Virus record (IMG/VR): IMGVR_UViG_2534681834_000001
Location: 1-9,108 of that record
Reading direction: 5' to 3' (one strand)
Length of the DNA stretch: 9,108 nucleotides
Source: a virus
Lineage: Monodnaviria > Loebvirae > Hofneiviricota > Faserviricetes > Tubulavirales > Inoviridae
A program made the position numbers and the translations under genes. Below the pieces are notes generated by a model. The model saw only the letters and a program-made list of their open reading frames with translations. It was not told the origin of the DNA and searched no databases. Of the stretch, positions 1 to 9,108 are shown in pieces (the stretch's first letter is position 1; each line of letters opens with the position of its first letter).

Positions 1-129
1 CTATGACATATCTCCCTGGTATCGGCGGACAACCAAAGGCACAACATGAAACATCATCATGCCGCCTTCCATGCCTGACGGCATAAAAACAATAAAACAA
101 ACATCGTCATATTGCTTAAAAAATGCCAT
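1..129 (-). CDS. Hypothetical small protein (about 42 aa) downstream of pIV; speculative
   Basis: By my reading a minus-strand frame is open from the pIV stop down to a TAG occupying window bases 1-3, with an in-frame ATG at 127-129 (a TTG at 163-165 is an alternative). It is below the ORF-track length cutoff and has a weak RBS. The window starting exactly on a stop codon, and ending exactly on the hipB start, suggests gene-boundary trimming. Confidence 0.25.
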   Translation of the reverse strand: MAFFKQYDDVCFIVFMPSGMEGGMMMFHVVPLVVRRYQGDMS

Positions 130-189
130 AAACCAAGATTCATCTTCTGTCCGTTCTCCTCGCAAAGCTGCGGGGATCGGACAGAATTC

Positions 190-1416
190 TCATCTTGGTA
201 CTTTGCGAACCTGAAGCATCACAACAATATCTGTCTTAGAATTTTCTGATGAACGTGAGCCAAAAATAGACCAACCAGACGAAGATTTAGAATCCTTCTG
301 CTCTGCAAGGCCGCCTATCAAAATAATATCACCATCATTCATAACAACGTCTGTTGTCACATCTCGCTTTAAAAGCGTCGGAGAATTATTAACGCCAGTA
401 TCAGTTGCAACAAAATTAGAAAGCTGCTGTTGAATGTTCAAATCAATAGCGTTGATTTTAATAGATGGTTTCACTCTAAACAAAACCCCTGAGCTACGAT
501 ACTCAACAGACTGAGTTGAATTATTACCATTAACTGTAACACTACCTAAAACAGGAACATCGGCACCTACAGAAAAAGAAGCCTCTGTATTATTCTTCAC
601 GCGCAATCTTGGCGAAGATACAACAGAAAATCTGTTATCAGTTGAAAGTAATGTATAAATTGCATCAATTGAACCTGTTTTTAAACTCAAAAAATCACCA
701 GAAGTACTAACGTTAGAGCCAAGAGAAATATTAAATTTTTCAGATATAACTTTAGCAGCAAGTAAAAATCCTGAGCCATCATTCTGACCAGTCTGAACCT
801 CAAAAACATATCCTGAAACAACAACCTCATCAGGAACCGTATCAATGGTTGGCAATATGCTTTTGATAATGTCAATATCTTTTTGTGTGCCATAATAAAC
901 AAGAGAATCACCTAACCTATTGAAATTATTAGAAGCCCCTGAAGAAGAAGTACTGGATATGTTAGTGCTTATATTTCCTGAATTTCCAAATTGACCAGAT
1001 ACAAAACCAGAGAGAATATCAGACAAATAACCAACTGAACGATTTAATGGAGAATACACAAAAACCTTTAAAATGGGAGGTTTTTCTTGAGGTTTAAAAG
1101 GCGTTATGTAGTCAACACCTTTTTTTGTATGAATTTTAATGTTCATATTAGAAAAATAACGTTCAATAAAATCACGCTCATTAACATCCTTGGTTATTTT
1201 AAATGAAACAAGTCGTTGGTCATTGGCTAAATCAGGAGAAATCATATAAGGAACCTTAAAAACCTCTGAATAAATCAAAGAAATAGCCTCAGGTAAAGCA
1301 AGCTTTTTTATTTCAAGCTCAGTGGCAGAAAAACAAGAAAAACTAAAAACATCAAGCACATATATATTAAACGTTTCATTTGTCACCACCTGAATAAAAA
1401 GTAACAAGCTCACCAT
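190..1416 (-). CDS. Filamentous-phage pIV-like outer-membrane secretin (virion export channel)
   Basis: Final gene of the module, about 410-430 aa, with a secretin-like C-terminal region (…DGDIILIGGLAEQKD…IVVMLQVRKV) whose architecture matches M13 pIV as I recall it. The track ORF begins at a TTG (1479); the first ATG (1414-1416) has an AGGA RBS about 7 nt upstream, so I place the start at 1416, overlapping the pI stop by about 40 nt. Confidence 0.85.
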   Translation of the reverse strand: MVSLLLFIQVVTNETFNIYVLDVFSFSCFSATELEIKKLALPEAISLIYSEVFKVPYMISPDLANDQRLVSFKITKDVNERDFIERYFSNMNIKIHTKKGVDYITPFKPQEKPPILKVFVYSPLNRSVGYLSDILSGFVSGQFGNSGNISTNISSTSSSGASNNFNRLGDSLVYYGTQKDIDIIKSILPTIDTVPDEVVVSGYVFEVQTGQNDGSGFLLAAKVISEKFNISLGSNVSTSGDFLSLKTGSIDAIYTLLSTDNRFSVVSSPRLRVKNNTEASFSVGADVPVLGSVTVNGNNSTQSVEYRSSGVLFRVKPSIKINAIDLNIQQQLSNFVATDTGVNNSPTLLKRDVTTDVVMNDGDIILIGGLAEQKDSKSSSGWSIFGSRSSENSKTDIVVMLQVRKVPR

Positions 1417-2413
1417 CAACAATTCCTGTAAGTAAAACACCTTGATAATTAAAGGTGGAAGCAGGAACCATGCGGACAAGACCTGAATTATTTGTAATTA
1501 TCACATAGCTACGCCCTTCTCTTTCAAGTTTCCCAACGATACGCCAAGTTGAAGATAATTTAGGTGTATTTGGAATTTCAGGAACTGAATTAAAATTAAC
1601 AGAACGTAAATTAGATTCCTGAGGCGGCAAATCAGAAGCATCACTCTTGACCAAACCACCATTAAAAAACCTATAAAGATAACCAATGCTAAATATGAAA
1701 ATGAGAATCATAGCAAGAACAACAAAATACAAACTTTTCTTGCCTAAAATGCTAGCCCGATTATCAACAGTAAGTTCTTTGCCATCCCCATTCTCATATG
1801 ATTTATACAAAGGGAATATATCTGGATTATATTTCCTCTGATAACTTGTAATTTTGTTTGACTTATAAAGTTTAGAACCATTAAAAACATCGACACGATA
1901 ACGACTCTTCATGCCAATAGCAATATGCTTTTGCATTCTAAAAGTAGTATCTAACCTTGCTTTAATAAAACGAGGTAAAGAAGAAACCTCCTGATTTATA
2001 ACAACAAGGTCACAACAAACACCAGTTTCAATATTAGTAAAATGACGATGCTCGGCAATAAATGAACGATGATTCTCACAAATGGATTTATCACTATCCC
2101 AAATGCGCCAAGATTCATCAATAACAATCAAATCTCCATACTGACAAAATGTATCTTCAGGACGAGAATCTTTATATGGGAAAAAATCATCAGCTTTGAC
2201 ATCATCATTAGAAACATAAACAACATCACCTAAAGATATATCTTTCCCCGATTTTGATTTTTTCATGCAATAAGCATGAATTTTATCTTTATTTATACCG
2301 TAAATATTAGTAACAACACGACGCCCAGAAGAACAAGCAGGTACAATAACACTAGAAACAACCTCGTATGATTTACCACTACCTAAAGAACCAACATAAG
2401 CAGAAATAGGCAT
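1376..2413 (-). CDS. Filamentous-phage pI / Zot-family assembly ATPase
   Basis: N-terminal Walker A motif GSLGSGKS, directly comparable to M13 pI GKLGSGKT, a single internal hydrophobic segment (YFVVLAMILIFIFSIGYLY), about 345 aa, and located between pVI and pIV. The track start at 2425 is a TTG; the ATG at 2411-2413 puts the Walker A at the N-terminus as in pI/Zot. Confidence 0.85.
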   Translation of the reverse strand: MPISAYVGSLGSGKSYEVVSSVIVPACSSGRRVVTNIYGINKDKIHAYCMKKSKSGKDISLGDVVYVSNDDVKADDFFPYKDSRPEDTFCQYGDLIVIDESWRIWDSDKSICENHRSFIAEHRHFTNIETGVCCDLVVINQEVSSLPRFIKARLDTTFRMQKHIAIGMKSRYRVDVFNGSKLYKSNKITSYQRKYNPDIFPLYKSYENGDGKELTVDNRASILGKKSLYFVVLAMILIFIFSIGYLYRFFNGGLVKSDASDLPPQESNLRSVNFNSVPEIPNTPKLSSTWRIVGKLEREGRSYVIITNNSGLVRMVPASTFNYQGVLLTGIVDGELVTFYSGGDK

Positions 2414-2417
2414 AAAA

Positions 2418-2711
2418 CTAACCAATAATCGGAATTCTACGAATAATAAAACGAGTAATATATGCGTTAAATATTAACTGAAAACCTTCATTGAACTTAA
2501 ATAAATCAAAAAAATACCACATAGGAGCAGGTAAAGCTCGAAATAAAGCTGGCACGTTAAAATTAAATGGTATCCATGAAGATAATACATAAATGAACTC
2601 ATGAACAACAAAAAGAAGTCCAAAAAACAAAACAAACCTAATGATAACAGTTCTAAAAATAAAACCTAAAAGAACATTAACGATACTAAATAACAATCCA
2701 AATAAAGCCAT
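2418..2711 (-). CDS. pVI-like minor coat protein (hydrophobic, 97 aa)
   Basis: Highly hydrophobic small protein in the pIII-pI slot, with an ATG start and a GAGG RBS. Its stop lies 4 nt before the pI ATG. Assignment is by position and composition only. Confidence 0.6.
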   Translation of the reverse strand: MALFGLLFSIVNVLLGFIFRTVIIRFVLFFGLLFVVHEFIYVLSSWIPFNFNVPALFRALPAPMWYFFDLFKFNEGFQLIFNAYITRFIIRRIPIIG

Positions 2712-2726
2712 TTTAAAACCTCAATG

Positions 2727-4199
2727 TCACGTAGAAAGCAAAATACGCAAGGAAATTAAAGCCCATATCAAAGAAGAAATGACACCAATAAAAGAACGGT
2801 ATTCCTCCAAAAATACGCAATGCATATCAATAACGTAATCTCTATCAAACACATTAAATTTAGCAACAGGACATGTAGCAGAAAGACCTGATGGACGTAC
2901 TTCTAAATCTCGATACTGATTAAAAAGTTCTTTAATTGGACGAAGTATCTCCTCCGCAGAAGGTGGTGTATCTAGCGTCGGTTCCGGCACGTCTGGATGA
3001 CTAAAATCAGGATTATTTGTACCATTATCAGAACCGCCACCTGACTCACCAGAAGAAAATCCAGGCGCACTAATATTCACATCAGAAGATGGTGAATTTT
3101 GAGCTGGATACATATAATCAAATTCTGTCAAAGAACCATAATTAGGATAAGCAACTTTTATTTCATTCGATGTTACAGGATTTGTTGAAGATACAGGGAC
3201 TCCCTGATAATCTGGCTGGGATGCTGCATCCATTAATAAATTATTTATCATCTTAGCAAGAGTATCCAAATCCATAGGGACTTTCTTTAATCCATCCATA
3301 ACAGAAAACCCATCATCATCAGTTGCCATCTTATAATCAGAAAAAAGAATCTCTAGAGCCTTATCAAAATCCTTATTAAAATACACCTGTATACCCTGAA
3401 TAGGAGTAATAGTAGTAGTTATTGACTCACTATCTGTATTTAAATAAGAAGAAGTATAGCTATATTTTACAGACGAGGCCGCCCCCTCTTGTCCTTCATT
3501 TACCGATAAAATATTCAACTTATAGCTACAAGATTTATCAGGTGCCCGGCAAGTTAAACCACCACCTGATGCAACTGAATTAAAATATCCTTGAGCAACC
3601 CCAGTAACAGAACCTACAATAAATGGCCCCTTACAAGATGTACCATAAGTACATTGCCACCAACGATAACCGGCACTTACCTTATCAACAGTATCATAAC
3701 TATTCATATTAAGTGAGTCAGCACTGATGACAAAAGGATTATCAGGAGTTGGTTCAAAATCTACAGTAAACGTTTTATCACCAAAATTAACCTCCCATTT
3801 ACCGTTACCTAAAGCTTTACCAGATGTGGCAATTAAATAACGACCATTATCAGAAAAATTTTCAGCAGTAAGAGACCCAACGGAATATCCAACTCCAGCC
3901 CATGTCAATGCACCTGAAGCACTACGGAAAAAGCCCTTGCTGGCAATAGATGGCGATTTTGACAACACAGTTTTAGATACTGCTGTAGATGTATTCCTAA
4001 CCATTAATGAATAAGCAGATTCGGTAGTCGTTACCTGAAGAGCTCTAGATGAAATCACCCTACCAAGCACAGTTGGAAGAACTGCCCTAGTTACAAGTAA
4101 AGGATTAGAGTAAACTTTCTGCACTGGAATTAATAAAGAGAAAAAAAATATAAAAAGAGATGTTAAAGCGATAACCCTTTGATTACAGCCCAAGCGCAT
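2727..4199 (-). CDS. pIII-like minor coat / adsorption protein (490 aa)
   Basis: N-terminal signal-peptide-like hydrophobic stretch, Cys-containing N-terminal domains, a Gly/Ser-rich linker (SSGESGGGSDNG) and a C-terminal domain with membrane anchor (…CPVAKFNVFDRDYVIDMHCVFLEEYRSFIGVISSLIWALISL…) that resembles the M13 pIII C-terminus pattern C.P..F…IDC…FR. It sits immediately after the pVIII terminator. Confidence 0.75.
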   Translation of the reverse strand: MRLGCNQRVIALTSLFIFFFSLLIPVQKVYSNPLLVTRAVLPTVLGRVISSRALQVTTTESAYSLMVRNTSTAVSKTVLSKSPSIASKGFFRSASGALTWAGVGYSVGSLTAENFSDNGRYLIATSGKALGNGKWEVNFGDKTFTVDFEPTPDNPFVISADSLNMNSYDTVDKVSAGYRWWQCTYGTSCKGPFIVGSVTGVAQGYFNSVASGGGLTCRAPDKSCSYKLNILSVNEGQEGAASSVKYSYTSSYLNTDSESITTTITPIQGIQVYFNKDFDKALEILFSDYKMATDDDGFSVMDGLKKVPMDLDTLAKMINNLLMDAASQPDYQGVPVSSTNPVTSNEIKVAYPNYGSLTEFDYMYPAQNSPSSDVNISAPGFSSGESGGGSDNGTNNPDFSHPDVPEPTLDTPPSAEEILRPIKELFNQYRDLEVRPSGLSATCPVAKFNVFDRDYVIDMHCVFLEEYRSFIGVISSLIWALISLRILLST

Positions 4200-4250
4200 A
4201 AAAGTCCCCAGAAAAAACTCATTAAATACCAGAAATTTAAAATCATAACC

Positions 4251-4276
4251 AAAAAAAGGGGAGAAACTCCCCTTAC
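4251..4276 (-). terminator. Rho-independent terminator downstream of the major coat gene
   Basis: On the minus strand: AAGGGGAG-TTT-CTCCCCTT followed by a run of T, starting about 10 nt after the pVIII stop. This is the same position as the strong terminator after gene VIII in Ff phages. Confidence 0.7.
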
Positions 4277-4285
4277 CTTAATAGA

Positions 4286-4516
4286 TTAAGCCGATTTAAC
4301 TGTACGAAGAATCCAACGAACGCCAGCAATACCAGCATAAAGTACAACTAATGATGCTGCTACGGCCATAATACCAGTAAGAACAGAACCAAAATCAATT
4401 GAATTGGTAAGTTGACTCAAATCAACCCCTGAAGAAGATGTGCCTGGGTCATCAGCAAAAGAAGGCATAGAAAATGAAGCTGCCAGTAATGAACCTAATG
4501 AAATGATCTTTTTCAT
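4286..4516 (-). CDS. pVIII-like major coat protein precursor
   Basis: From MKKIISLGSLLAASFSMPSFA (signal peptide, AxA-like cleavage before DDPG) the mature ~55-aa protein has an acidic N-terminus, hydrophobic core and basic C-terminus (RWILRTVKSA), the hallmark of inovirus major coat proteins. GGTGG RBS before the ATG at 4514-4516; the track's longer start at 4537 is less likely. Confidence 0.85.
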   Translation of the reverse strand: MKKIISLGSLLAASFSMPSFADDPGTSSSGVDLSQLTNSIDFGSVLTGIMAVAASLVVLYAGIAGVRWILRTVKSA

Positions 4517-4529
4517 AAAAATCCACCAT

Positions 4530-4757
4530 TTATGCATTTCGTATTAACTTGATAATCAAGCTGATGCAATGTGAAAATAAATACAAAGCAACAACCGAAG
4601 TAAAAGCAACCCCCCAATATTGAGCAAATATTGAATAATCAATATCAGAGAATTGCTGGTATGGAATCTCAGAAAAAATTAACTTGACTTCCTTACAGTC
4701 ACCACTGGGTTTAATATCACAAATAGAGGCAATAATAACTTTATCATGAGATTCCAT
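4530..4757 (-). CDS. Small membrane protein (75 aa) at the pVII/pIX position; function unknown
   Basis: Single ORF between pV and pVIII with a C-terminal hydrophobic segment (WGVAFTSVVALYLFSHCISLIIKLI). Ff phages have two ~32-aa proteins (pVII, pIX) in this slot; here there is one longer protein. Assignment is positional only. Confidence 0.5.
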   Translation of the reverse strand: MESHDKVIIASICDIKPSGDCKEVKLIFSEIPYQQFSDIDYSIFAQYWGVAFTSVVALYLFSHCISLIIKLIRNA

Positions 4758-4763
4758 AACTTA

Positions 4764-5036
4764 TCACTTTTCTGCAATAGGAATTAAAACAATCTTACCA
4801 ATACGTAATTTTTGAAAGTCACCAACAAAAATACTGGAAGGATGCAACTGATACAAACCAGCCGGATATGGAGCCTGGCCTTGTTCAAGAGGAATTTTAA
4901 ATAGTTGAGGGTAATCCCCACCGAGGAAAATATAACCAGACTGTTCAGATATCGTATATGGTTTACCAGTGTTCTTAGAAACACCACTACGAGTATCTGC
5001 AACAGCTTGAGTAGGTTTAATTTCAATCTTAATCAT
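4764..5036 (-). CDS. pV-like ssDNA-binding protein (90 aa)
   Basis: The translation MIKIEIKPTQAVADTRSGVSKNTGKPYTISEQSGYIFLGGDYPQLFKIPLEQGQAPYPAGLYQLHPSSIFVGDF… aligns along its length with M13 gene V protein (MIKVEIKPSQAQFTTRSGVSRQGKPYSLNEQLCYVDLGNEYPVLVKITLDEGQPAYAPGLYTVHLSSFKVGQF…, from memory). AGGTG RBS; start 13 nt after the pII stop. Confidence 0.9.
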   Translation of the reverse strand: MIKIEIKPTQAVADTRSGVSKNTGKPYTISEQSGYIFLGGDYPQLFKIPLEQGQAPYPAGLYQLHPSSIFVGDFQKLRIGKIVLIPIAEK

Positions 5037-5049
5037 AATACACCTAATG

Positions 5050-6165
5050 TTAAGCTACACGTAAATAAGACGGCTTTATATACCAAGAAGGAATAACACA
5101 ATCCGAAACAGTTATTTCTCTTGTTTGTTTCACAACAACAGGAGAGAATTTAGAGACATTACATTTTTGAGCAATATCAATACCAATCTTCCTTAACCTT
5201 GCTCGATGTGTCTGGACTTGCTTTTTATTTAAATCAAAAATATGACCGTGAAACCATTGAATTGCATACATGGCTGTAGTATTGGCAGCACGAGTAGTGT
5301 CAACAACACCACGACTAATAAGATGTTCACTAATAGTTTCAAAGTCCATAGCATTCACCGATAACTTTTCATCAAGCTCAAGAAATTCAGAATGTAACTT
5401 ATTTAACAAAGAATAATCAGAAAGTCCCCAATAGCACATGGATTTTTTTTGAAGAAAACGAGACTTTAATTTTTGCTCAAACCTGACAATGCCGTTGTCC
5501 TTGCAGTAATTAATGACATCCATTATATAATTAAATTCTTTAGAATCCTCTGAGAATTTATTTTTGATTTTCGCAAGGCTATGCAACTCAAGCTCATGAG
5601 CTTTGTTATATACTGTTGGGTATATAAGATTGACATTGCCTTTTTTTGAAAGCCAGTCAACGGATTTCCCATTGGAATGCAACCGTGGAATACTATTCCT
5701 GTAAGGTTGAGTAGAAAGACCTGATATATAATCATCCTCATTCCCCTTCCCTACTGATTTGTTTGATGTTATATGCAGTTCTTTAATTAAAGCACCATCA
5801 GTAATCAAATGAGCTTTTTCATTCTCTTTCGATTGTCCAGGCATTAACTTTGTACACTTGGTAAATAAAGGTAATTTCAGTTCAGTTAGAATCTGATTAA
5901 ATACCATGACACAAGCATCTACAGTCGGAAGCCCAAAAAGATTATCAAGACGTCCCCAGCGGGACGGATTTCCAGTCATTTTTAACACTGAACCACGGAT
6001 CGAGATTGAAACAACATCACAGAAAGAGCCACGATGCTGGAAGGTTGGTTGAGATAATGCGCTAGCCTCCCCGCTTTCAAGATGTATACGCTGATAAGCT
6101 ACATCGCTCAGTATCGGCAACTGATAGCCGAAATCCTGTTCGATAGTTAACCAGTCGTAAAACAT
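5050..6165 (-). CDS. pII-like rolling-circle replication initiator (nickase)
   Basis: First and largest gene of the module, directly upstream of pV. The internal segment DNGIVRFEQKLKSRFLQ matches M13 gII SGLVRFEARIKTRYLK (from memory). The track start at 6177 is a TTG; the first ATG (6163-6165) is preceded by a GAGAG RBS. Confidence 0.85.
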   Translation of the reverse strand: MFYDWLTIEQDFGYQLPILSDVAYQRIHLESGEASALSQPTFQHRGSFCDVVSISIRGSVLKMTGNPSRWGRLDNLFGLPTVDACVMVFNQILTELKLPLFTKCTKLMPGQSKENEKAHLITDGALIKELHITSNKSVGKGNEDDYISGLSTQPYRNSIPRLHSNGKSVDWLSKKGNVNLIYPTVYNKAHELELHSLAKIKNKFSEDSKEFNYIMDVINYCKDNGIVRFEQKLKSRFLQKKSMCYWGLSDYSLLNKLHSEFLELDEKLSVNAMDFETISEHLISRGVVDTTRAANTTAMYAIQWFHGHIFDLNKKQVQTHRARLRKIGIDIAQKCNVSKFSPVVVKQTREITVSDCVIPSWYIKPSYLRVA

Positions 6166-6177
6166 AGAATCTCTCAA

Positions 6178-6360
6178 TCATTCAAGATGAGCCGCAAGGC
6201 TCAACACTGATACTTAACGGTATCAATAATGCTATTATCAAACATAACAGACGTCAATGGTATTGATACTAACAAATATCAAAACTGACCCTACAGATTC
6301 AGCTATGAAAAATGGAGGTTAAAATTAAGACTTTGCAATCAGCATGAGAAGGCAGCAGAT
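6178..6360. promoter_or_regulatory. Divergent promoter/operator region between pII (minus) and the HTH regulator (plus); possibly also the plus-strand origin
   Basis: 183-bp AT-rich intergenic spacer between divergent genes. Candidate sigma70 elements for the regulator: TTCAGC (6298-6303), 16-nt spacer, TAAAAT (6320-6325), then an AGAAGG RBS. Candidate for pII on the minus strand: TTGACG (rc of 6252-6257), 17-nt spacer, TAGCAT (rc of 6229-6234). The motifs are weak matches. Confidence 0.5.
6205..6285. repeat. Cluster of TATCAA / TTGATA hexamers (putative operator or iteron sites)
   Basis: TATCAA at about 6221, 6236 and 6276; inverted TTGATA at about 6263; inverted pair TGATAC-N6-GTATCA at 6208-6225; GTATTGATAC at 6260-6269. 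They overlap the candidate pII promoter elements. Confidence 0.4.
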
Positions 6361-6849
6361 ATGGCAGTAGACAAAGAGTGTGCAGAACGTATACGTCTGT
6401 CTATCATCCAAAATTTTACATATGACGATATCGAAAATGAAACAGGTATCAGCGTCAGTACCCTTAAACGGCTGGCTTCTGGAGAAAGGGAACCCAAATT
6501 AATAGAAATCAGGAAGATAGCTAAAGCGACAGGAAAAAATCCGGTATGGTTAGCATTCGGTGAGTCAACCCTGCCTCTGCCTGAGAACCTTGGCGAAGAT
6601 ATGACTGCTTTTGGTTACGGTATGGATTTTAAGTTACAAGGTCATGAAGCAGGTGAAGCGGCGGCGAAAATCCGCCTGATGGCCGCGATCCGGGACATAG
6701 AGAAAGATGATGTTGTTTTTCTGGAAAAATTTATAGACTTGCTGAATCTGGATCGCACAATAAACAGCGTCAAAACCAAACGTTACGGCTACACAGAAGA
6801 AGAAACGCTGAAAAGACTAAACCTTCCCCAGCCGAAGGGGAAAAAGTAA
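6361..6849 (+). CDS. XRE/Cro-CI-type helix-turn-helix transcriptional regulator (putative prophage repressor, 162 aa)
   Basis: N-terminal HTH signature (…TYDDIENETGISVSTLKRLASGEREPKLIEIRKIAKATGKNPVWLAFGE…) typical of phage repressors, with a C-terminal ~90 aa I do not recognise. It is transcribed divergently from pII, like rstR versus rstA in CTXphi, and is noticeably more GC-rich than the structural module. Confidence 0.8.
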   Translation: MAVDKECAERIRLSIIQNFTYDDIENETGISVSTLKRLASGEREPKLIEIRKIAKATGKNPVWLAFGESTLPLPENLGEDMTAFGYGMDFKLQGHEAGEAAAKIRLMAAIRDIEKDDVVFLEKFIDLLNLDRTINSVKTKRYGYTEEETLKRLNLPQPKGKK

Positions 6850-6852
6850 AAA

Positions 6853-6909
6853 TACCGTGGGAAACCACGGTAAAGTTCGGGTGTCACAGAACCCCGAACC
6901 GCTTCGCGG
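6853..6909 (+). other. Three consecutive GC-rich stem-loops immediately after the regulator stop (terminator-like, or ssDNA origin/packaging hairpins)
   Basis: TACCGTGG-GAAA-CCACGGTA (6853-6872; 8-bp stem with a GNRA-type loop), GTTCGGG-N11-CCCGAAC (6875-6899), and CCGC-TTC-GCGG (6899-6909). None is followed by a T-run, so they are not classical intrinsic terminators. Confidence 0.4.
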
Positions 6910-7348
6910 TACAAATTTTAACCAAATGAAGAAAAAAAGACCATGCTTAAAAAAGATGGAAAAAGGAAAAAATAGTTGTTATTGAAAAAGCCAACTGCTT
7001 AGACTGCGAACAATTATCAGAAAGAATAGTTGAAAAAATCAAAGAGACAGAAGCATTAATAGAATGCCCTATTGGAGAACTGGACTTTCAATACATCGTC
7101 ATGAATGAAGCCAAAGCATATGCTATAAGAAAAAGAAAAAGATTTATATTTCAAAGGGTTAGCATATGATTTTGAAGGGGGTGAAAAAGCAGAATGGACA
7201 AGAAATTTAAGGGATGCACTCATATTCGATGATGAAAGAAAAGCAGCAATGATGATAAGGATAATGACATTCCCAAGAATGAATTATGAAATAGTTCCTT
7301 TAATCTACAAAGTAGATCCTCTATTCAAATCTGAAAAATAAAAATTTT

Positions 7349-7375
7349 GGTACGCACAATGGCGTTATGTATAAA
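7349..7375 (+). other. dif-like XerC/XerD site A (phage attP-type, degenerate)
   Basis: GGTACGCACAA-TGGCG-TTATGTATAAA against E. coli dif GGTGCGCATAA-TGTATA-TTATGTTAAAT (from memory): XerC arm 9/11, XerD arm 8/11, 5-nt central region. It lies in inverted orientation to site B on the other side of the hairpin. Confidence 0.5.
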
Positions 7376-7413
7376 AAGGCCGCTGCCGGATGAAAGTCTA
7401 GCAGCGGCCTTTT
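7374..7413. terminator. Perfect 13-bp stem-loop, bidirectional terminator-like; core of the putative attP forked hairpin
   Basis: AAAAGGCCGCTGC (7374-7386), 14-nt loop, GCAGCGGCCTTTT (7401-7413). A GC-rich stem with a T-run on either strand, about 105 nt downstream of the hipA stop, so it likely terminates hipBA transcripts and plus-strand transcripts from the phage side. Confidence 0.6.
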
Positions 7414-7443
7414 CAACATAACGCATACTACATTATGCGCACC
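7411..7443 (-). other. dif-like XerCD recombination site B (host-type XerC arm; putative prophage-chromosome junction at dif)
   Basis: Minus strand reads GGTGCGCATAA-TGTAGTATGCG-TTATGTTGAAA: the XerC arm is 11/11 to E. coli dif and the first 4 nt of the central region (TGTA) also match, then it diverges; a XerD-like arm (9/11) follows after an 11-nt rather than 6-nt central region. It is about 75-110 bp downstream of the hipA stop, where I recall the chromosomal dif of E. coli K-12 to lie. Confidence 0.6.
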
Positions 7444-7519
7444 AGTATAAACCAAGGAAGAATCCAGTCGTTGGCGGTCATGATTGTCGTGCTCATTAAC
7501 AACGACCAAACCCCATATC

Positions 7520-8842
7520 TCACTTACTACCGTATTCTCGGCTTAACCGTCCATGCAACCTCAACACATTGGTTTCAACTGCCGTCACCACGTTCTCCGG
7601 AAAATCTGTCGGTAATGAAGTCTTCACGTTATCCAGTGCTGCCGGAATCATTCTGGCAAAGTCACTTAGGATTTCATGCATCTGCACTTCCGGGAATCTC
7701 AGCACCTTTGCTGTCGCCAAAAAATGTCGCGGATAAATTTTATCGATTGCCGTTTTTTTGCCTTTGGATGCGTTAAGCCCCATTGCCAGTTTGAGATCGC
7801 TGATGTGTATTCCCGTACCGCCAAGGACCGGAAATGCTGAAATGATGTCGTAAAATGGCGTGAGTCGATAACTGCCGCCAGCCTGAATAAATACGGAGAA
7901 GTTTTTTGCATGGCCATCCGTTGCGCCAATCAACCACTGGAAGACCTGGAATTTCATAAAATCATAACGATCGCGAAGCGCCTCGCTGGACCCCATCAAA
8001 AACGCCATGATCCGCGCGATGCCTGGGCCTCCATCTGATTCATATTTCACAGATGAAGGTAAACCGAATGTCTGACACATATCCTCCTGTGGCAAGCGAA
8101 GTAAAACCGTTCGCTCAGTATTCCAACGCCTGTCAAAACGTTCGACCGCTAACGCGCGCACCCTTCCCGCTTTAATGATTTCTGCGTCCGGAACATTCAA
8201 CCCAAGTTCTTTCGCCAGCAGCAGACAGTAATACTCATTATCAACGCTTTGGCTGAGATCGAGCGTCGCATTGGGCTGCCTGATTTCGCCAATCGGTAAT
8301 TTAATGATGTGCGTCGTCGGCGTTATTCCTTTCGGAATGCACCAGTCATTGCCTATTCTAAGCAGCGCTGTCTTCTCCTGCGCGCCAGCAACCGAGATGC
8401 GAAAGTCATTTTCTTCTCTAATCATGCCCAGAGGGATATCTGCTTTATAAGCCGTTAATACTTCTTCAAGCCTGGCTTCAGTAAGCTTTTCCCATGCCAT
8501 TATCGGGCGCGTTATGGTTTCATTTTCGGGTAATAACGTTACGGCACCAACGCTGTCTCGCCCTATTTCTGACAATAAATCAAACGGTTGTCTGGATTTA
8601 GCATGATAACGTTTAACGATCCGGTCACGTACAATCGGGCTATCGGGTAACAGGTTATCGAAGAAGTTAAATACGGCATCTGAGGTGATATTCCCCCTCT
8701 GCAATGGCAGCGAAAGTGACAACGGTCTGGCATAACGGCTGGCTAACCACTCCGGTGCATACTTAAAGGTGTGCGCGCCGTTGGCTAACTTCGTTAACTC
8801 GCCTACCCGCTGGTTGTTCATCCAAGTGACAAGTTTAGGCAT
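7520..8842 (-). CDS. hipA: HipA serine/threonine kinase toxin of the HipBA toxin-antitoxin system
   Basis: The translation from MPKLVTWMNNQRVGELTKLANGAHTFKYAPEWLAS… to …LRLHGRLSREYGSK matches E. coli HipA (440 aa) as I recall it. The track ORF is extended upstream to an out-of-context start; the real ATG at 8840-8842 overlaps the hipB stop by 1 nt. Confidence 0.97.
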   Translation of the reverse strand: MPKLVTWMNNQRVGELTKLANGAHTFKYAPEWLASRYARPLSLSLPLQRGNITSDAVFNFFDNLLPDSPIVRDRIVKRYHAKSRQPFDLLSEIGRDSVGAVTLLPENETITRPIMAWEKLTEARLEEVLTAYKADIPLGMIREENDFRISVAGAQEKTALLRIGNDWCIPKGITPTTHIIKLPIGEIRQPNATLDLSQSVDNEYYCLLLAKELGLNVPDAEIIKAGRVRALAVERFDRRWNTERTVLLRLPQEDMCQTFGLPSSVKYESDGGPGIARIMAFLMGSSEALRDRYDFMKFQVFQWLIGATDGHAKNFSVFIQAGGSYRLTPFYDIISAFPVLGGTGIHISDLKLAMGLNASKGKKTAIDKIYPRHFLATAKVLRFPEVQMHEILSDFARMIPAALDNVKTSLPTDFPENVVTAVETNVLRLHGRLSREYGSK

Positions 8843-9108
8843 TACCACTCCAGATCTTGCTGTTCTGTTGATTCTGGCGAGGCATTTTTCGTGTCGCATA
8901 GTGTCATTGAGAGTTCAAGCGACTGTAAAATCTTAAAAAATGTCGTGAGCGTGGTATTGTCAGGGTTGTTTTCGAAATTGGAAATTGTCGCCTGCTTAAT
9001 GCCAATTTTTTTCGCCAGCTCGCTCTGCGTCCAGCCATTTTGCTGGCGAACCAGTTTCATTGCATTCGCTAATTGCGTTGGGCTATAGATCTTCTGAAAG
9101 CTCATCAT
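8842..9108 (-). CDS. hipB: HipB antitoxin / HTH autorepressor of hipBA
   Basis: The 88-aa translation MMSFQKIYSPTQLANAMKLVRQQNGWTQSELAKKIGIKQATISNFENNPDNTTLTTFFKILQSLELSMTL… matches E. coli HipB. The start codon is the final triplet of the window, so the promoter and operators are outside it. Confidence 0.97.
   Translation of the reverse strand: MMSFQKIYSPTQLANAMKLVRQQNGWTQSELAKKIGIKQATISNFENNPDNTTLTTFFKILQSLELSMTLCDTKNASPESTEQQDLEW

Follow-up and report, generated by a model that had tools for sequence, protein, structure and literature searches.

Which gene might keep the filamentous prophage of IMG/VR record IMGVR_UViG_2534681834_000001 silent in its host is the question raised by a divergent gene pair in this record. 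The window analyzed here is the whole stretch of DNA, i.e., positions 1 to 9,108 of the record (9,108 nucleotides; Inoviridae). An inovirus prophage fills most of it, and the phage genes identified by open reading frame (ORF), Pfam and PHROG assignments all lie on the (-) strand. An intact ORF of 162 amino acids (6361-6849, +), whose product is called the regulator below, is transcribed divergently from the gene of a pII-type rolling-circle replication initiator (5050-6165, -), which heads the presumed target operon. We consider it probable that the regulator represses an enterobacterial inovirus of the dif-integrating kind and acts as its immunity switch, and the module is an uncharacterised member of a well-known kind of system.

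Regulator protein and its control region

The first-pass annotation of this DNA, made from the letters alone, had assigned a helix-turn-helix (HTH) of the XRE/Cro-CI type to the regulator and had found its C-terminal half unrecognisable, and both statements have been borne out. Pfam HTH_3 (PF01381) matches residues 17-64 with an E-value of 2e-8 (34.6 bits against a cut-off of 23), and the AlphaFold2 model of the full-length protein, built from an alignment of 19 sequences, has five N-terminal helices at residues 2-18, 21-28, 32-40, 47-57 and 61-66 with a predicted local distance difference test score (pLDDT) of about 80. In Foldseek searches this domain superposes on C.AhdI, 434 Cro and P22 c2 with a root mean square deviation (rmsd) of 1.3-1.8 A over 63-64 residues; DdrO and the DNA-binding domain of SinR fall in the same rmsd range, and further matches include C.BclI, Stl and lambda cI. 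These three lines of evidence define a DNA-binding domain of residues 1-67 (6361-6561, +), of which the recognition helix starts at S31-V32-S33-T34. An identical protein is present on 158 contigs and is recorded as [quoted passage not shown].

The domain is followed by a variable linker (residues 68-95; 6562-6645, +), predicted to be disordered from its pLDDT (below 50 for residues 69-103) and its poor conservation in the alignment, and by a family-specific helical C-terminal domain (residues 96-162; 6646-6849, +) defined by AlphaFold2 and profile search. The C-terminal 68 residues folded alone reach a pLDDT of 78, with helices at about 96-111, 115-142 and 146-152. In the family alignment L127, L130 and I134 are invariant and hydrophobic residues are spaced by 3-4 positions, which suggests a helical packing interface; the Ala-Gly at residues 97-98 is not conserved. 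A profile of this domain, searched by HMMER against 1.84 billion representatives, found only the regulator's own family (8 representatives) and no link to a known sensor or oligomerisation family. Pfam has no match outside the HTH, the C-terminal half included, and no Peptidase_S24 domain. Sequence searches of the PDB gave no match, whether with the protein itself or with the profiles of the family and of the C-terminal domain (best C-terminal E-value 0.36, unrelated proteins), and Foldseek gave nothing significant for the C-terminal model (best E-value 3.1), the matches of the full-length model being confined to the N-terminal domain. Among 50,697 phage records searched by tblastn, matches were limited to the HTH and were to Vibrio inoviruses and Pseudomonas cI-like repressors. 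In PHROGs, residues 3-123 belong to a "transcriptional regulator" family and residues 62-162 to PHROG 20579, a family of unknown function.

The partner gene is assigned as pII by Pfam G2P_X_C (6.7e-25), Phage_CRI and PHROG 702 "replication protein" (8.7e-107). Its start is the ATG at 6165, which has GAGAG before it and is kept in all relatives, "aaaacat" being common to all pII-type loci; the mechanical ORF call begins at TTG 6177, and a RefSeq homologue is annotated with 371 amino acids. Because pII starts at 6165, the intergenic region is 195 bp long (6166-6360). Calls of 174 amino acids in some databases start from a TTG that lies inside the regulator -10 element; such calls are probably too long, and the conserved ATG is that at 6361.

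At the candidate promoter of pII, the first-pass annotation had noticed direct TATCAA hexamers with inverted copies. The copies are real, they flank and abut the predicted promoter, and they lie at 6221, 6236 and 6277 (+) and at 6263 (-), that is, 4 copies per 183 bp against 0.29 expected from the remainder of the window (P=1e-4 for TATCAA). The direct repeat as the unit did not stand, and an inverted AGTATCA takes its place: the copies are fragments of two 18-bp palindromes of the form TGATAC-N6-GTATCA. Candidate operator O1 (6208-6225), TGATACttaacgGTATCA, is a perfect palindrome with 0 mismatches and half-sites AGTATCA/GGTATCA around a 4-nt spacer, and candidate operator O2 (6264-6281), TGATACtaacaaATATCA, departs from the palindrome by 1 mismatch. 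They are the sole sites of this form with at most one mismatch in 9.1 kb, all remaining matches having 3; with their spacing of 56 bp, they can also be read as a direct repeat of 24 nt. AGTATCA is the best form in which to write the 7-nt half-site. Two such half-sites around the 4-nt spacer are 11 bp apart from centre to centre, so that both half-sites of a palindrome lie on one face of the helix. A direct-repeat reading of TATCAA, as for P2 C or Pf4r, was rejected because the conserved units are palindromic and one of the "direct" copies is not conserved. This copy, at 6236, is probably incidental because it lies in the poorly conserved promoter spacer (pairwise identity 0.36).

The hexamers might instead be chance features of an AT-rich intergenic region, with the regulator binding elsewhere or not at all. 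When the choice of hexamer after the fact is corrected for, the P value for any hexamer reaching at least 4 copies is 0.066, so that the window alone gives modest support for the hexamers; moreover, one of the four copies is the unconserved one at 6236. We nevertheless give hardly any credence to a chance origin, in view of the two palindromes with at most one mismatch where no other site of the window falls below 3, of the enrichment of perfect 6-nt inverted repeats (P=0.011), and of half-sites that are conserved in position and co-vary with the recognition helix across the 13 loci compared below.

A leftward sigma-70 promoter of pII is predicted at 6229-6257 (-), with -35 TTGACG (6257-6252), a 17-nt spacer and -10 TAGCAT (6234-6229), scoring 9/12; a promoter at the same offset with a score of 9-11/12 is found in 11 of 13 distinct related loci. 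Its transcription start is predicted near 6222, which puts the centre of O1 at about +6 and that of O2 at about -50, and O2 lies 6 nt upstream of the -35. In the opposite direction, the predicted promoter of the regulator (6298-6325, +) consists of a weak -35 TTCAGC, a 16-nt spacer and -10 TAAAAT (6320-6325), and the ATG at 6361 is about 29 nt downstream of the start predicted for it. This -10 (TAAAAT/TAGAAT/TAAGAT) is found in 6 loci at a constant offset of +126 from a GCAAG box. The box itself, kept in 13 of 13 loci, is held in a hairpin, TGAGCC-gcaa-GGCTCA (6188-6203), in the predicted 5' leader of the pII mRNA, where relatives have an extra half-site (AGTGTC or AGTGCC) that is degenerate in the window (AGGCTC). 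An imperfect inverted repeat, CTGACC-N7-TTCAG (6284-6302, O3-like), overlaps the weak -35 of the regulator promoter; its position is taken by a perfect CTGACC-N5-GGTCAG in one relative (locus L003) and by regular GGCAC half-sites in the group of loci with (A/S)R in the recognition helix.

The arrangement of this second promoter also allows the regulator to be read as a positive or dual controller, like the C-proteins of restriction-modification systems or lambda cI at PRM, which would chiefly drive its own transcript and downstream cargo and would repress pII only secondarily or not at all. Controller proteins, namely C.AhdI and C.BclI, are among the closest structural matches, the -35 of the regulator promoter is weak with sites centred near -40 and -60 (typical positions of activators), and in relatives the regulator gene is followed at once by co-oriented cargo, a Shedu SduA gene being one example. 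However, O1 sits on the transcription start of pII, a repressing position, and downstream genes differ by lineage while the control region and the divergent replication operon are constant; in the window, the downstream gene is frameshifted and three hairpins separate it from the regulator. We regard a controller of this kind as unlikely.

Related loci and the exchangeable cassette

The regulator family is small, amounting to about 21 clusters (90% identity) in a set of 5.8 billion proteins, and its hosts are E. coli, Salmonella, Yersinia enterocolitica and Y. kristensenii, Klebsiella, Enterobacter, Citrobacter, Photorhabdus, Providencia, Kluyvera, Pantoea and Erwinia. All loci examined (E. 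coli, Salmonella, Providencia, Erwinia, Kluyvera and metagenomes) are inoviruses or inovirus remnants, and none of them gives a non-phage context. In every intact related locus the regulator gene is divergent from the replication gene. The layout is that of rstR and rstA in CTXphi, to which the first-pass annotation had likened the pair.

For the control region, 13 distinct related loci were aligned from the GCAAG box to the regulator start. Half-sites have pairwise identities of 0.72-0.81, those of O1 being 0.80-0.81 against 0.52 for the O1 spacer. The -35 columns of pII are 0.88 identical and the two -10 elements 0.73-0.79 (0.79 for that of the regulator), while spacers and untranslated regions range over 0.36-0.55. 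The recognition helix G-I-S-V-S-T/S goes with GATAC or GACAC half-sites, and GATAC is confined to SVS(T/S). All 4 loci with G-I-S-(A/S)-R-T have between 2 and 4 GGCAC half-sites, which are found in 0 of 9 others, and GGACA half-sites belong to the sole locus with G-I-S-T-S-T. The half-site sequence thus changes together with residues 32-33 of the recognition helix (VS with GA(T/C)AC, (A/S)R with GGCAC), positions which in our own alignment correspond to the base-contacting Gln28/Gln29 of 434 repressor. Such co-variation is the signature expected of a protein that reads these half-sites and gives strong circumstantial support to this role but, the lineages being few, no proof of it. It also points to at least three immunity specificities, and the idea of immunity types in the first-pass annotation fits it.

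Some relatives are damaged at the proposed switch itself. In Erwinia tracheiphila (locus L002, about 2870-2900), where the regulator is 95% identical, a deletion of about 41 bp has taken O1 and the -10 of the replication promoter, which suggests a crippled or locked prophage. On two IMG/VR contigs (L009 and L010, 2800-3418), the regulator is cut at residue 26, frameshifted and fused beside pVI/Zot genes, with the control region, pII, pV and coat genes deleted, and a related 102-amino-acid fragment (P0038) is found on 293 contigs of Yersinia enterocolitica. Remnants of this type probably explain why PHROG 20579 covers just the C-terminal 102 residues.

Comparison across related prophages has also located the edges of the module. 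Against a prophage of E. coli 300709 (L022), positions 1-6171 of the window are homologous (87%) up to a break within a few bases of the pII ATG, and homology returns at 6845-6900 (93%) and again from 7083. The prophage of ETEC1749 (L023) has the same joints, being homologous at 5050-6171 and 6845-6919. Between these joints, both prophages (6657-6980 in L022 and 2617-2949 in L023) have an unrelated gene of 67 amino acids plus a different intergenic region, which contains repeated ATG(C/T)ATACAAGA motifs (ATGCATACAAGA-type repeats). The 67-amino-acid protein begins MAEKKYTSLRVPEERKMELEKAA, has no Pfam match above threshold, and looks ribbon-helix-helix-like at its N-terminus by eye; in the annotation of L023 it is 51 amino acids long, from an internal Met. 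Because regulator and control region are swapped together, 6172-6844 is an exchangeable cassette in which the regulator gene has its cognate control region, and its right joint is formed by the last codons of the regulator gene and a conserved triple hairpin. The first-pass annotation had suspected a swapped-in module from base composition; the G+C content is indeed 43.8% for the regulator gene against 34.7% for the structural module (36.7% for pII), and the joints bear the suspicion out at nucleotide resolution.

On a wider scale, the prophages in five complete E. coli genomes match positions 4751-6922 of the window at 98.5% identity, their structural genes being just about 66-70% similar to those of the window; out of 5,426 complete genomes, these 5 alone have the cassette. 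In Providencia and in metagenomic inoviruses, it is Rep_trans (PF02486) replication genes that this regulator and control region stand beside.

These contexts bear on another reading, in which the regulator is an antitoxin-like or accessory regulator of downstream cargo, or a captured host regulator, unrelated to the phage life cycle. XRE HTH proteins are commonly antitoxins, the higher G+C content of the gene suggests a foreign origin, and there is a weak MqsA_antitoxin match, but for RstR only. No downstream partner is conserved across the loci examined, however, nor does any of these loci lie outside an inovirus or its remnant, and the cassette edges fall at the start of pII and at a hairpin element of phage intergenic DNA. 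We consider this reading very improbable; as expected of a prophage gene rather than a host gene, homologues lie consistently within inovirus gene sets.

Proposed switch and the prophage around it

As a repressor and immunity switch, the regulator would work as follows. Its 434/P22-type HTH probably binds as a dimer to the 18-bp inverted repeats of AGTATCA, and the two best of these, O1 and O2, lie on either side of the predicted leftward promoter from which pII and the phage genes behind it would be transcribed. Since O1 covers the predicted transcription start and O2 abuts the -35, occupancy of either would exclude RNA polymerase, and replication and virion production would be silenced in the prophage and in an incoming phage of the same specificity, i.e., immunity. 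The helical C-terminal domain on its flexible linker would most likely serve dimerisation or higher-order oligomerisation for cooperative binding, a role that we infer by analogy with RstR, SinR and DdrO. Autoregulation is probable as well, since the regulator's own promoter, which adjoins O2 and the O3-like repeat, combines a good -10 with a weak -35. Regulator gene and control region travel between phages as one cassette, and operator specificity would be set largely by residues 32-33.

Several points weigh against this proposal. Consensus promoter matches in the region number 2 against 1.6 expected from shuffles, which is not above chance; neither O1 nor O2 directly overlaps a -10 or -35 hexamer; and the O1-O2 spacing of 56 bp corresponds to 5.3 helical turns. 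Looping between the two sites was considered and is not favoured, this spacing being out of helical phase. The O3-like repeat has a geometry unlike that of O1 and O2, so that its status is uncertain and it may bind something else. The co-variation is suggestive rather than statistically strong because it comes from perhaps three independent lineages only. In the full-length model the C-terminal part has a pLDDT of 50-65, only moderate confidence, and a literature search for the protein accession and the prophage type found no paper characterising the regulator family. No induction route is evident either, as there is no S24 peptidase domain, no convincing LexA box (no CTGT-N8-ACAG with at most one mismatch, and matches with 2 mismatches not above chance) and no recognisable antirepressor. 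SOS control of the switch was rejected for want of the S24 domain and the LexA box; induction, if any, would thus not use the classical SOS routes.

We also entertain, tentatively and as doubtful in its entirety, a broader reading of the element as a portable immunity cassette. It would recombine at two fixed joints, namely the start of the replication operon and the widely conserved triple-hairpin element; it would serve unrelated initiators (pII/HUH and Rep_trans), have its specificity re-set by two residues, and use the C-terminal domain for docking of an inducer or antirepressor. The docking site is proposed because no SOS route is visible.

The other phage genes of the window, assigned by ORF together with Pfam or PHROG and all on the (-) strand, are a pIV-like secretin (190-1479), Zot/pI (1376-2425), a pVI-like gene (2418-2711), a pIII-like gene (2727-4199), the major coat protein pVIII (4286-4537), a small virion protein (4530-4757) and the single-stranded DNA-binding pV (4764-5036). 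To the right of the prophage lie hipA (7520-8899) and hipB (8842-9108), assigned by ORF and Pfam, and a search of the whole window against Rfam gave nothing relevant.

About 75 bp from the hipA stop, a dif-like hybrid site, GGTGCGCATAATGTAGTATGCGTTAT, was spotted by eye at about 7418-7446 (-), of which the XerC arm GGTGCGCATAA is identical to that of E. coli dif. A search of the window with the E. coli dif consensus, allowing up to 3 mismatches, gave no match. A second dif-like site, GGTACGCACAATGGCGTTATGTATAAAA, lies inverted relative to the first at about 7350-7377 (+), and a GC-rich hairpin (7378-7414) separates the two. The segment 7348-7446 has the look of a prophage-host junction at which a hybrid host dif is accompanied by an attP-derived site in the style of CTXphi. 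Because of the hybrid site beside hipBA, the element is taken to be a dif-integrated filamentous prophage of the CUS-1/YpfPhi/UPphi kind (PMC4266046, PMC7307601). In E. coli JNE23-001 (L001, 2586-18600), a related prophage is present as two complete tandem copies adjoining hipA; tandem copies are typical of dif-integrated inoviruses, and the window shows only the copy nearest hipA.

Right after the stop codon of the regulator, three consecutive hairpins occupy about 6848-6916, with fold z-scores of -3.7 (DNA) and -3.8 (RNA). This triple hairpin is 97% identical to part of the major intergenic region of phage If1 and 92% identical to Alteromonas phage phiAFP1, and 694 E. coli records contain its core of 56-70 nt, with 424 of the places on plasmids; in the one plasmid copy examined, the core lies between a degraded ISNCY transposase gene and a gene of the STM4504 family. 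It resembles a terminator on the (-) strand; possible roles are those of a single-strand origin, of a packaging element, or of a hotspot for recombination or insertion. Behind it, 6927-7341 is a broken homologue of a hypothetical ORF with 157 amino acids in L022 and 136 in L023, whose frame shifts in A runs (about 6930-6975 and 7128-7145). The 30-amino-acid ORF at 7249-7341 is the only part in frame with the conserved C-terminus, and the frame breaks could be due to pseudogenisation, homopolymer sequencing error or slippage.

Two Providencia inovirus prophages have variable cargo immediately behind the regulator homologue and co-oriented with it. In L015 (4544-5356), this is a Shedu SduA defence gene (PADLOC 4.7e-97), and in L016 (4558-5628), an SLFN/AlbA_2-domain gene with a tRNA_anti-like gene. 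By its placement this cargo resembles lysogen-expressed morons behind a repressor gene.

Comparison with known systems

Filamentous prophages integrated at dif are common in E. coli, Salmonella, Yersinia, Klebsiella and their relatives, and some affect virulence, while lysogeny control of such phages has been worked out only for CTXphi and the Pf phages. The regulator family provides a concrete switch candidate for the enterobacterial group, with predicted operators and promoters and a natural series of two-residue specificities, and from this series it could be foretold which incoming phages are kept out by which prophages. The clean cassette edges show immunity modules being exchanged among inoviruses without the replication and structural modules. 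If the regulator is an ordinary repressor, as expected, the gain lies in annotation and tools, with no new principle.

Among the closest known systems are the dif-integrating enterobacterial inoviruses YpfPhi/CUS-1 and UPphi, which were compared by description. In YpfPhi/CUS-1, YPO2273 occupies the position of rstR and is called an RstR homologue, its role being one that "awaits experimental demonstration" (PMC4266046); no Yersinia pestis member was among the regulator homologues found. UPphi has unnamed reverse-oriented ORFs beside gene II, and its paper describes no regulator (PMC7307601). Pf4r of the Pf phages is likewise the immunity repressor of an integrative inovirus, and its dimerisation is needed for binding (PMC8402870). 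It is of the P2 C type with direct repeats and its gene has an excisionase gene as neighbour, whereas the regulator has a 434-like fold, predicted inverted-repeat sites and the replication gene as neighbour.

In architecture, SinR and DdrO are the same as the regulator, with an XRE domain at the N-terminus and, beyond a linker, a short all-alpha domain at the C-terminus, and the N-terminal domains superpose (3qq6, 6jq1, 6rnx). The C-terminal domain of the regulator has no sequence or fold match, the helical hook of SinR/SinI included, and neither a SinI-like antagonist nor an IrrE-like protease was identified here. The 434, P22 c2 and lambda cI-Cro repressors share the five-helix fold (rmsd 1.4-1.6 A), divergent promoters and several operators; their operators are palindromes of 17-18 bp, like the sites predicted here, and the variable recognition-helix positions of the regulator correspond to the base readers of 434 repressor. 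They differ in the host element, which here is a single-stranded DNA filamentous phage, and LexA and lambda cI have an S24 or RecA-cleavable C-terminus in the place of which the regulator has about 60 helical residues found in its own family only.

RstR of CTXphi (Vibrio cholerae) is also a small XRE/HTH_3 protein, divergent from the replication initiator across a short intergenic control region, and heteroimmune rstR alleles come with their own intergenic operators. The two proteins are 112 and 162 amino acids long, respectively, their C-terminal regions are unrelated, and the partner replication protein here is of the pII type. Co-regulation by LexA through an intergenic SOS box is a trait of RstR without a counterpart here. 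According to the account in PMC8402870, which cites Kimsey and Waldor (2004), RstR represses the rstA promoter as a dimer of dimers. Its likeness to the regulator amounts to 38% identity over 39 residues and an hhalign probability of 72% over 42 columns, and orthology was rejected as only the HTH aligns. Since the likeness is confined to the HTH, the regulator is a functional analogue of RstR within the XRE superfamily and not its orthologue.

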